From: a virus
Lineage: Duplodnaviria > Caudoviricetes
Direction: 5' to 3' (one strand)
Virus record (IMG/VR): IMGVR_UViG_3300033405_000937
Coordinates: 1 to 39,756 of that record
Length of the DNA: 39,756 nucleotides
Shown here: piece after piece, positions 30,025 to 39,756 of the stretch
Position numbering within the stretch: position 1 is the stretch's first letter
Layout of the letters: each line of letters opens with the position of its first letter
Translations under genes and position numbers: made by a program
Notes under the pieces: model-generated
Databases searched by the model: none
Seen by the model: only the letters and a program-made list of their open reading frames with translations
What the model was told of the DNA's origin: nothing

Positions 30025-30031
<7 letters not shown>
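29495..30031 (-). CDS. terS: Terminase small subunit (putative)
   Basis: LTRKQQMFVATYV...TAIRTAY...A resembles the Terminase_2 HTH; upstream of TerL. Confidence 0.7.
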
Positions 30032-32313
<2,282 letters not shown>

Positions 32314-38519: not shown

Positions 38520-38811
38520 CATCAACAACAACTGCTACCTATGGAATCGGTAGCGAACTAATTGTGAGTTCACTGACTTTCAGGGTATTTACGTAAGTGA
38601 CTGACTACAATAGAGTTATCTCTATCGCAGAGGGAAAATGTAAGTTTTACACGGTCTGCAAAGACAAAACTTTACAAATCTTTACAAACAATGTAAAACG
38701 TACACACTATGGCTTAGCATGTATTTGGGTTGGAATTTGTGCAGGGGTGTAGAGAGGATAGTACCACAATCACACTGGTGAAAACAATCGGACCACTACC
38801 GACCCCTATAC
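38520..38811. promoter_or_regulatory. AT-rich divergent control region with operator-like repeats
   Basis: TGTAAGTTTTACA (38639-38651), CTTTACAAA twice (38670, 38680) and TGTAAAACGTACA (38692-38704) between divergent genes. Confidence 0.5.
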
Positions 38812-39756
38812 ATGGGGATGTGTCACCAGAAGATAATCCAACTCGAAGCCGCCCGTACTCCAGAACCCGATGAAGACCTGAAGCGAATAGCCGCATCATC
38901 CTTATCCAATGCCCGTGTGGTCGAGATAGAGTACAAAACCGCCGAGCCGCTTATCCTCAAGTTTGAGTACCTTCAGAACATGGGAGCCGCCCGTCACTGC
39001 TTCGGCTTGTACTTCGATAACTATTTGGCGGGAGTGGTGGTCTTTGGTATGACCGGGGGTACCCATGTGCCGCAGAGCATCTGTGGGAAGGAGCACGCCG
39101 ACAAAGTACGGACGTTAATCCGTGGCTGCTGTACCCACTGGAGCCCAGCGAACAGCCCGAGCTACCTGATTAACCGCGCCTGTGCCCTGATGGCGGCTAA
39201 AGGGTTCCCGCTGACAATCGCTTATGCGGATGAGTCAGCTTTTGAGCTAGGCTGCTGCTACCAAGCGGCGGGATGGGATTATATCGGATTGGGAGGCCGG
39301 GATACCGCCCAGCGTAGACCCGATGGCAGGTTAATAGGTTCCCGCTGTATCTCTGCTTACCTACGCGACCGTAAGGGACAACCCGACCCACGCAGAGGTG
39401 CCACACTGGCCGATGCCGAGGCATGGATAGCCCAGAGTATTAAAGAGGGGTACACGGTCGTCGGACAAGGGTTCAACGCATGGCGGGTCAGGAAGAACTG
39501 GGATGGCAGCGATGTTACTCGGGCACAGGTGAAGTGGGAGCTAGAGTCGCGCTATGGCAAGTTCCAACCTACCCCTCGCAAGCATCGTTATCTCCATATC
39601 GGGGGTGACAAGCGTACCCAACGGCTATTAAGGAAGGCTCTACGCTACCCCATCCTGCCTTATCCCAAACGCGGACTAGACGAAGGTGTCGCCCTGAGTA
39701 CCCCTCAGGGAAGCCAAGTTCAATCCTTGGAGTCCGCTCCAATTCTCTCCTTGTAG
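38812..39756 (+). CDS. mom: Mom-family adenine-modification enzyme (GNAT fold)
   Basis: FGLY...LAGVVVFG, LIRG...ANSPSYLI, IAYAD....GCCYQAAGWDYIG, KHRYL and terminal PYPK match the Mom-like family pattern. Confidence 0.85.
   Translation: MGMCHQKIIQLEAARTPEPDEDLKRIAASSLSNARVVEIEYKTAEPLILKFEYLQNMGAARHCFGLYFDNYLAGVVVFGMTGGTHVPQSICGKEHADKVRTLIRGCCTHWSPANSPSYLINRACALMAAKGFPLTIAYADESAFELGCCYQAAGWDYIGLGGRDTAQRRPDGRLIGSRCISAYLRDRKGQPDPRRGATLADAEAWIAQSIKEGYTVVGQGFNAWRVRKNWDGSDVTRAQVKWELESRYGKFQPTPRKHRYLHIGGDKRTQRLLRKALRYPILPYPKRGLDEGVALSTPQGSQVQSLESAPILSL
39671..39741 (+). ncRNA. tRNA-Gly-like cloverleaf RNA (anticodon ACC, encoded CCA) embedded in the mom 3' end
   Basis: Acceptor GCGGACT/AGTCCGC + TCCA; D arm GAC-GAAGGT-GTC; anticodon arm CCCTGA-GTACCCC-TCAGGG; variable AAG; T arm CCAAG-TTCAATC-CTTGG. 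All stems are perfectly Watson-Crick. Confidence 0.8.

Follow-up and report, generated by a model that had tools for sequence, protein, structure and literature searches.

A tRNA-Gly-like RNA in the reading frame of a prophage mom gene: a candidate glycyl donor for DNA modification

Why should a prophage gene for a DNA-modifying enzyme carry, within its own reading frame, an RNA that looks like a glycine tRNA? The question is raised by the IMG/VR provirus record IMGVR_UViG_3300033405_000937, considered here over its full 39,756 nucleotides (the window). An integrase gene occupies positions 1-819, the structural genes lie on the minus strand, and the last ORF is a plus-strand mom gene (Table 1). 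This is the final prophage gene in the window; about 230 nt beyond its stop codon, the parent contig (L281) turns to genes of host type. No com gene lies upstream of mom, and sigma-70 promoter calling returned nothing for either mom or the embedded RNA. The original prediction, made from the sequence, saw in this arrangement a two-component system in which a private RNA, charged with glycine by the host, is channelled to DNA modification.

Table 1. Features of the mom gene and of the RNA that it contains (window coordinates).
Feature	Coordinates	Strand	Basis
mom-family gene, 314 codons	38812..39756	+	Profile, structure and homologue matches
Folded Mom enzyme, residues 1-286, ending at the conserved YPK motif	38812..39669	+	Alignment, model
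Unconserved 28-codon read-through tail spanning the RNA	39670..39756	+	pLDDT <50 for residues 290-314
Whole tRNA-Gly-like RNA, 71 nt	39671..39741	+	ARAGORN, folding
Acceptor stem, 5' strand, pairing with 39731-39737; G1-C72, C2-G71, G3-C70	39671..39677	+	Sequence, folding
1-nt connector (A, no U8) and minimal D arm, 3 bp, loop with AAGG	39678..39691	+	Sequence, folding
Anticodon arm; ACC at 39700-39702, U33, C37, predicted G32-C38 pair	39692..39710	+	ARAGORN, folding
T arm, 5 bp, without bulged A; C49-G65, C50-G64, A51-U63	39714..39730	+	Folding
Discriminator U73 and encoded CCA	39738..39741	+	Sequence

The cloverleaf is real and non-random. It lies at exactly 39671-39741, as predicted, and this segment folds with an MFE of -30.6 kcal/mol (z -3.52; 1 of 200 shuffles was as good); when it is placed in mRNA context (up to 200/150 nt), the four stems have mean pair probabilities of 0.86-1.00. 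The acceptor stem has 7 bp, position 8 is A, the variable region is 3 nt long, the T loop is normal and U33 is retained. The bacterial tRNA-Gly identity set of G1-C72, C2-G71, U73, C35 and C36 is complete (PMC7826273, PMC9976931), and G3-C70, A34, C37 and A51-U63 were also read correctly from the sequence, just as the ACC anticodon, the missing U8, the 1-nt connector and the minimal D arm are genuine oddities. The anticodon arm was only partly anticipated: U33, ACC and C37 are there, but in place of an open 7-nt loop, a predicted G32-C38 pair extends the arm to 7 bp and leaves a loop of 5 nt. A weak call by ARAGORN, or none, had been expected; it reports tRNA-Gly(acc) at its default threshold. 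In Rfam, the tRNA model (RF00005) fell short of E 5 at 39671-39741, and no other family matched.

As an elongator, the RNA departs from a canonical tRNA-Gly in its A8, C37 and ACC, in the absence of an Rfam match and in a T stem of about -9.2 kcal/mol. The latter figure is calculated, as the sum of the pair terms in Table 3 of PMC3239215; by the EF-Tu classes of that study C49-G65 is weak, C50-G64 tight and A51-U63 weak. Mean tRNA-Gly stands at -10.8 and the staphylococcal non-proteinogenic tRNA-Gly at -9.6/-9.7 (PMC7826273), the calculated window stem being weaker than those of these donor tRNAs. The window RNA thus joins a T stem predicted to bind EF-Tu weakly to an intact GlyRS identity, as non-proteinogenic tRNAs do. 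By the same arithmetic, the T stems of its unbulged relatives L287, L086 and L513 are near-ordinary, at about -10.1 to -10.5.

The assignment of the ORF to the Mom family is upheld on several counts. It scores 72.1 bits against Pfam PF25680 (cut-off 27.1) and matches PHROG 1384 (E 5.6e-30). Its predicted structure (pLDDT 89) is confident up to about residue 289, the RNA-coded tail being disordered, and the top Foldseek matches are to Mu Mom, 8bv8, a GNAT fold (E 9e-10). A single-sequence search of the PDB found no match, but a profile search did reach 8bv8 (E 3e-27). Translation may in fact start at 38818, from the second ATG; the N terminus of close relatives reads MKCHQR. Among eight residues to which roles have been given in Mu Mom (R111, S124, D149, R151, H58, Y59, Y159 and W48; PMC13219725), five align, as R111/R104, S124/S117, D149/D140, Y59/Y53 and Y159/Y150 (Mu/window). 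H58 and R151 are replaced by E52 and S142, and the W48 position differs too; R151, essential in Mu Mom, is therefore not conserved. The two enzymes share fold, family, these five equivalents and YPK. However, Mu Mom works with host tRNA-Gly and stops at YPK, there being no such RNA in Mu, whereas the window enzyme has a longer insertion, lacks equivalents of H58 and R151, is not preceded by com and continues past YPK across the RNA. It is because Mu Mom stops at YPK that we regard the tail of the window protein as read-through. Two variants of gene organization were seen among the homologues: in P0005, a Mom homologue (42%) is fused to an N-terminal region of about 230 residues belonging to no called family, and in L082 (1700-2850) the closest viral Mom homologue lies directly 3' of an integrase gene resembling that of the window, with the RNA at neither end.

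The use of Gly-tRNA by Mom, put forward in the original prediction, is published for the Mu enzyme, which transfers glycine from Gly-tRNA-Gly to the N6 of adenine in dsDNA, yielding 6-NcmdA; all three E. coli tRNA-Gly isoacceptors serve it fully, and Gly-tRNA-Ala is rejected (PMC13219725). By analogy, the window enzyme may make 6-NcmdA from Gly-tRNA-Gly, an activity known for Mu Mom only.

The RNA lies inside the mom ORF, not beside it. It begins one base after the end of YPK (register +1), G1 being the second base of codon 287, and the stop codon comes 12 nt past CCA. When relatives of the window Mom were read beyond YPK, similar RNAs were seen. G1 falls at -1, +1 or +3 relative to the YPK end in 58 of 71 copies, with +1 the commonest register (24/71), and the stop codon is 3' of the RNA in 64 of 71. 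The mom frame is open across the RNA in 54 of 59 copies at the 3' end of the gene (other frames, 59/118) and in 44 of 46 at the 5' end (other frames, 26/92), where many copies have an in-frame ATG 4-13 nt ahead. Register-matched counts are uneven, the short copies in one register giving 0 open and 4 stopped. Since several registers are in use, the RNA-coded peptide is not the conserved thing. In operons, translational coupling to the next gene offers an alternative reason for the open frames, though in the window mom is the last prophage gene.

The association can be approached from the RNA side, with a pattern that describes a bulged T arm and a 3' acceptor end and specifies neither mom nor the anticodon. 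This one strict pattern occurs in an estimated 1100 or so viral stretches. Loci were counted only when both flanks reached at least 900 nt, by which 54 of 121 viral, 56 of 120 cellular and 60 of 123 control loci were dropped. A same-strand mom gene was found beside 65 of 67 viral loci, with the RNA at its 3' end in 47 and at its 5' end in 18; in cellular genomes mom was on the same strand at 42 of 64 loci, on the opposite strand at 2 and absent from 20. Ordinary tRNA-Gly 3' ends, used as control, had mom beside them in 0 of 63 cases, and the sole mom match among all 123 control loci was itself an ACC RNA after mom. The 20 cellular loci without mom comprise some chance matches lacking a cloverleaf, some that follow ParB-like genes and some beside glycosyltransferases; a number of them look like real RNAs next to other genes. 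As the sequences are related, none of these counts represents independent events.

Removal of duplicates and of 14 among 228 RNAs that had no 6-7-bp acceptor left 214 distinct RNAs. An NCC anticodon is present in 198 (TCC 94, ACC 89, CCC 12, GCC 3); ACC occurs in 2 of 75 control tRNA-Gly. U33 is kept in 86, A37 in 142 and U8 in 71 of these 198 RNAs, versus 75, 75 and 66 of the 75 controls. GlyRS identity is thus maintained while decoding features decay, as had been proposed for the window RNA. In the scanned family, CCA, U73, the first three pairs and the T stem are fixed by the search pattern and so do not count as evidence. Among base pairs not fixed by the pattern, 14 of 22 in a set of 76-nt RNAs (partly chosen by anticodon-arm register) and 11 of 19 in a set of D-armless 69-nt RNAs (chosen by length only) change on both sides; paired cells amount to 94.7% and 96.9%, against 34-45% in slid controls, and shuffled controls are also far lower. 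The recurrence of a linked, covarying cloverleaf at mom homologues, an expectation of the original prediction, is supported. The family extends from 76-nt cloverleafs down to D-armless forms of 67-70 nt, and its members sit mid-contig in many phages. Rfam misses most of them, as did a strict cloverleaf descriptor, owing to the T-stem bulge; covariance models are not family-specific, and their scores were therefore not used for membership.

Surveyed from the mom side, the RNA is a minority feature. Of 91 sources searched with a covariance model, 25 have it at the 3' end of mom (28 matches, 3 elsewhere); in a second set, of more distant sources, 3 of 80 have it at mom. Both figures are minima, since the filters discarded even the copy in the window. 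The RNA covariance models gave no match in the Mu mom region; L082, the closest viral homologue (49%), L083 and L284 have no RNA, and a first viral scan returned mostly a distant aquatic Mom clade without it. In a tree of 271 Mom sequences, a sample enriched for RNA carriers and not reflecting natural frequencies, presence of the RNA changed at least 15 times. The clade to which the window belongs, with 9 leaves and a support of 0.99, contains five labelled carriers, namely the window, L282, L286, L287 and L086, a sixth recognized by eye (L285) and three leaves without the RNA. The nearest design match is L282 (Mom 46% identical), with ACC, the same junction, the same connector and D-arm design, and compensated stems. 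Copies found in this mom-first manner mostly keep U73 and often CCA. Two members of the clade have an extra tetraloop hairpin in the anticodon loop, 5' of the C-rich stretch (L285:1828-1911 and L086:2964-3050). Elsewhere, at L225:335-472, two family RNAs stand in tandem 3' of one mom gene.

How does the window RNA relate to this family? It has no bulged-A T stem of the kind found in the main subfamily, only a plain 5-bp stem, and two family models give it 31.1 and 26.8 bits, where free-standing phage tRNA-Gly score 31-49. A pattern built on its own design found 7 loci, all free-standing phage tRNA-Gly and 0 near mom. In L293-L299, free-standing phage tRNA-Gly, mostly UCC, have a short AAGG-containing D loop like that of the window RNA; such genes are a possible source of the window's RNA type. 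By position and anatomy, that is by the YPK junction, the open mom frame and the NCC loop, the window RNA appears nevertheless to be like the embedded family, and may have arisen separately, from a phage tRNA-Gly captured at this same place in mom.

A mom-embedded tRNA-Gly-like locus, overlooked in the original prediction, has been known since 2011, when a 76-bp tRNA-Gly-like "pseudo-tRNA" was described inside a mom homologue in 16 Dehalococcoides ssrA genomic islands (PMC3146451). As far as its description goes, it resembles the window RNA in having a complete tRNA-Gly-like fold and an NCC anticodon variable at 34 ("DCC") inside a mom homologue. It differs in lying at the 5' end of the gene, in one genus, and no function is given in the available text; the window RNA has 71 nt, a 3' location and a reduced D arm. 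The 5'-type RNAs of our family, 76 nt long and in frame at the gene start, include copies from Dehalococcoidia genomes (L335, L347, L370). In the isolated Salinibacter phage B2_17 (L421:1373-2576), a ParB-like gene and a Pfam-recognized mom are followed by a GenBank-annotated tRNA-Gly located after the mom stop; the annotated mom start looks too late, the upstream frame being Mom-like. A functional parallel is provided by the Staphylococcus non-proteinogenic tRNA-Gly NP1-3, donors for FmhB (PMC7826273). They too combine GlyRS identity with A51-U63, weak predicted EF-Tu binding and a GNAT-fold aminoacyl transferase as client. However, NP1-3 are free-standing chromosomal genes with a tested role in cell-wall synthesis, while the window RNA is phage-borne, lies in its client's coding frame and would serve an acceptor that is DNA; we claim no homology between them. 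With ordinary tRNA-Gly (RF00005) the window RNA shares the cloverleaf, the identity set, the T loop and CCA, and it differs in A34, C37, the lack of U8, the 1-nt connector, the 3-bp D stem, a sub-threshold score and its location in a coding frame. The literature consulted, largely outside subscription journals, contained no paper linking a mom-embedded RNA to glycyl donation; the terms "tRNA-like" and "encoded tRNA" are absent from the main text of PMC13219725.

On the strength of sequence comparison, we think it probable that the window RNA is a dedicated, non-ribosomal glycyl donor for Mom, processed from the mom mRNA. The mom transcript would fold the cloverleaf, and host nucleases, RNase P at G1 and 3' trimming to the encoded CCA, would release the 71-nt RNA. 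Recognized by its G1-C72, C2-G71, U73, C35 and C36, this RNA would be glycylated by the GlyRS of the host, and the weak T stem, A34, C37, absent U8 and shrunken D arm would prevent EF-Tu and the ribosome from taking it up. Mom would then pass the glycine to the N6 of adenine in dsDNA, with rearrangement to N6-carbamoylmethyl-adenine as for Mu Mom, and the modified phage DNA would likely be protected from restriction. The behavior of minihelices and of RNase P, and the tagging of stop-less messages by tmRNA, form the general background to such a scheme. Fixed positions 35-36 with a free 34 reproduce the way GlyRS reads tRNA-Gly (PMC7826273, PMC9976931); Mom being indifferent to the isoacceptor, this pattern points to charging. 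An A34 tRNA-Gly is charged by human GlyRS, with a loop that is distorted in simulation (PMC4928997).

The term "two-component system" claimed too much. Mu Mom is served by three ordinary isoacceptors, and Mu, like many mom loci, has no RNA, so that the RNA is to be seen as an accessory supply and not as an obligatory subunit. What stands of the original interpretation is the use of Gly-tRNA by Mom, the linkage, the tRNA identity and the rejection of an attachment-site origin. Since the stop codon comes only after the RNA, a mom message that has released the RNA would be without a stop, and the supply of donor would thereby be tied to a curb on an enzyme that is potentially toxic. If tRNA-processing enzymes cut the RNA out, the 5' type would lose its start codon and the 3' type its stop codon, so that any one message could either yield donor or be translated, but not both. 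One could envision, as a tentative extension that we hold to be rather doubtful, that mom is a dual-coding unit: a single transcript, in the same frame, would encode both an enzyme and its aminoacyl-carrier cosubstrate, and the either/or switch would set the enzyme-to-donor ratio and cap the toxic enzyme, the arrangement having been rebuilt at both gene ends and re-captured from different tRNA-Gly sources.

The main rival, possibly a second function of the same RNA, is regulation in cis, which the original prediction had not considered. The cloverleaf would act only as a tRNA mimic in the mom mRNA, either as a processing site that inactivates the message or as a binding site through which Mom or GlyRS sets the Mom level by glycine-tRNA status, and a released RNA, if any, would not be a donor. 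The location within a translated frame keeps such a role alive, all the more as the RNA is held in frame at either gene end and in more than one register; Mu, by its annotation, regulates mom through Com, and the thrS operator is a precedent for tRNA mimicry in cis. We consider it unlikely as the sole explanation, however, for an internal mimic cannot be charged and yet C35-C36 are kept with 34 free; U73 and often CCA are preserved in the mom-first copies; the structure is found at the 5' end, at the 3' end, after the stop (B2_17) and in tandem (L225); and the register-matched frame counts are uneven.

Could the RNA instead be a tRNA-Gly of general use to the phage, one that replenishes or protects the pool of glycine tRNAs, for translation or as a decoy for host anticodon nucleases, and that resides at mom only because both draw on that pool? 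The ARAGORN call, the normal U33 and T loop, the occurrence away from mom of free-standing phage tRNA-Gly(UCC) whose D loop has the same AAGG, and the frequent use of GGU, which makes up 209 of the 695 Gly codons in 13 prophage ORFs, would agree with this. Yet the free-standing copies keep UCC or similar loops together with A37, whereas the window RNA has ACC, C37, A8, a predicted 5-nt loop and a weak T stem; moreover, ordinary tRNA-Gly ends lie beside mom at 0 of 63 loci, and the D-armless 67-70-nt members are unlikely to decode. These features make a general translational role quite improbable. The idea of an att remnant, a decayed host tRNA or a chance fold draws on the position of the RNA at the prophage end, 15 nt from the end of the window, with host-type genes about 230 nt further in L281. 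It is largely refuted, and we give it very little credence: the cloverleaf is complete, with its own matching 5' strand; it lies within mom as a single copy, no second one being present in the window or over the 2.5 kb to its right; the same junction and design recur, with compensated stems, in the 46%-identical relative L282; and the family sits mid-contig in many phages. An att remnant, which the original prediction had named as grounds for its own rejection, is thus not supported by the window or the 2.5 kb to its right.

If the RNA does serve as a glycyl donor to Mom, dedicated non-ribosomal tRNAs would extend from cell-wall chemistry to DNA modification, phages would be seen to supply a private charged-tRNA channel for anti-restriction, and mom would offer a natural case of a tRNA encoded within the reading frame of its client. 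The proposal lends itself to direct testing with the in vitro assay already published for Mom. The large family also constitutes a natural library in which the needs of GlyRS and Mom can be set against those of the ribosome. RNAs of the same type occur with no mom nearby in L334 and L369 (Acidobacteriota contigs), L346 and L183, either between YdjC-like and glycosyltransferase-2 genes or after a glycosyltransferase-1 gene; these are possible donors for other glycyl transfers. Bulged-T-stem tRNA-Gly-like RNAs were seen as well in L309, L314, L319, L329 and L358 (Bacillota contigs), L305 and L341, with neither mom nor a Pfam-named neighbor among the ORFs tested.

Some further features of the prophage deserve mention. 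In the divergent region 5' of mom, positions 38639-38704 contain an AT-rich 26-nt inverted repeat and short direct repeats, operator-like in appearance; an Rfam match to mir-19 at 38633-38710 is below gathering, falls on this AT-rich inverted repeat and was dismissed as spurious. A GroES/GroEL-like pair (Cpn60, 198 bits) is encoded at 30025-31958, between the terminase region and the replication genes. Just past the window end, at L281:3444-3537, four GGTACC-containing repeats surround TTGACA and TATACT elements with a 15-nt spacer, facing the prophage end; seen by eye, in a stretch with no promoter call, they may be the integrase promoter and operators near attR.
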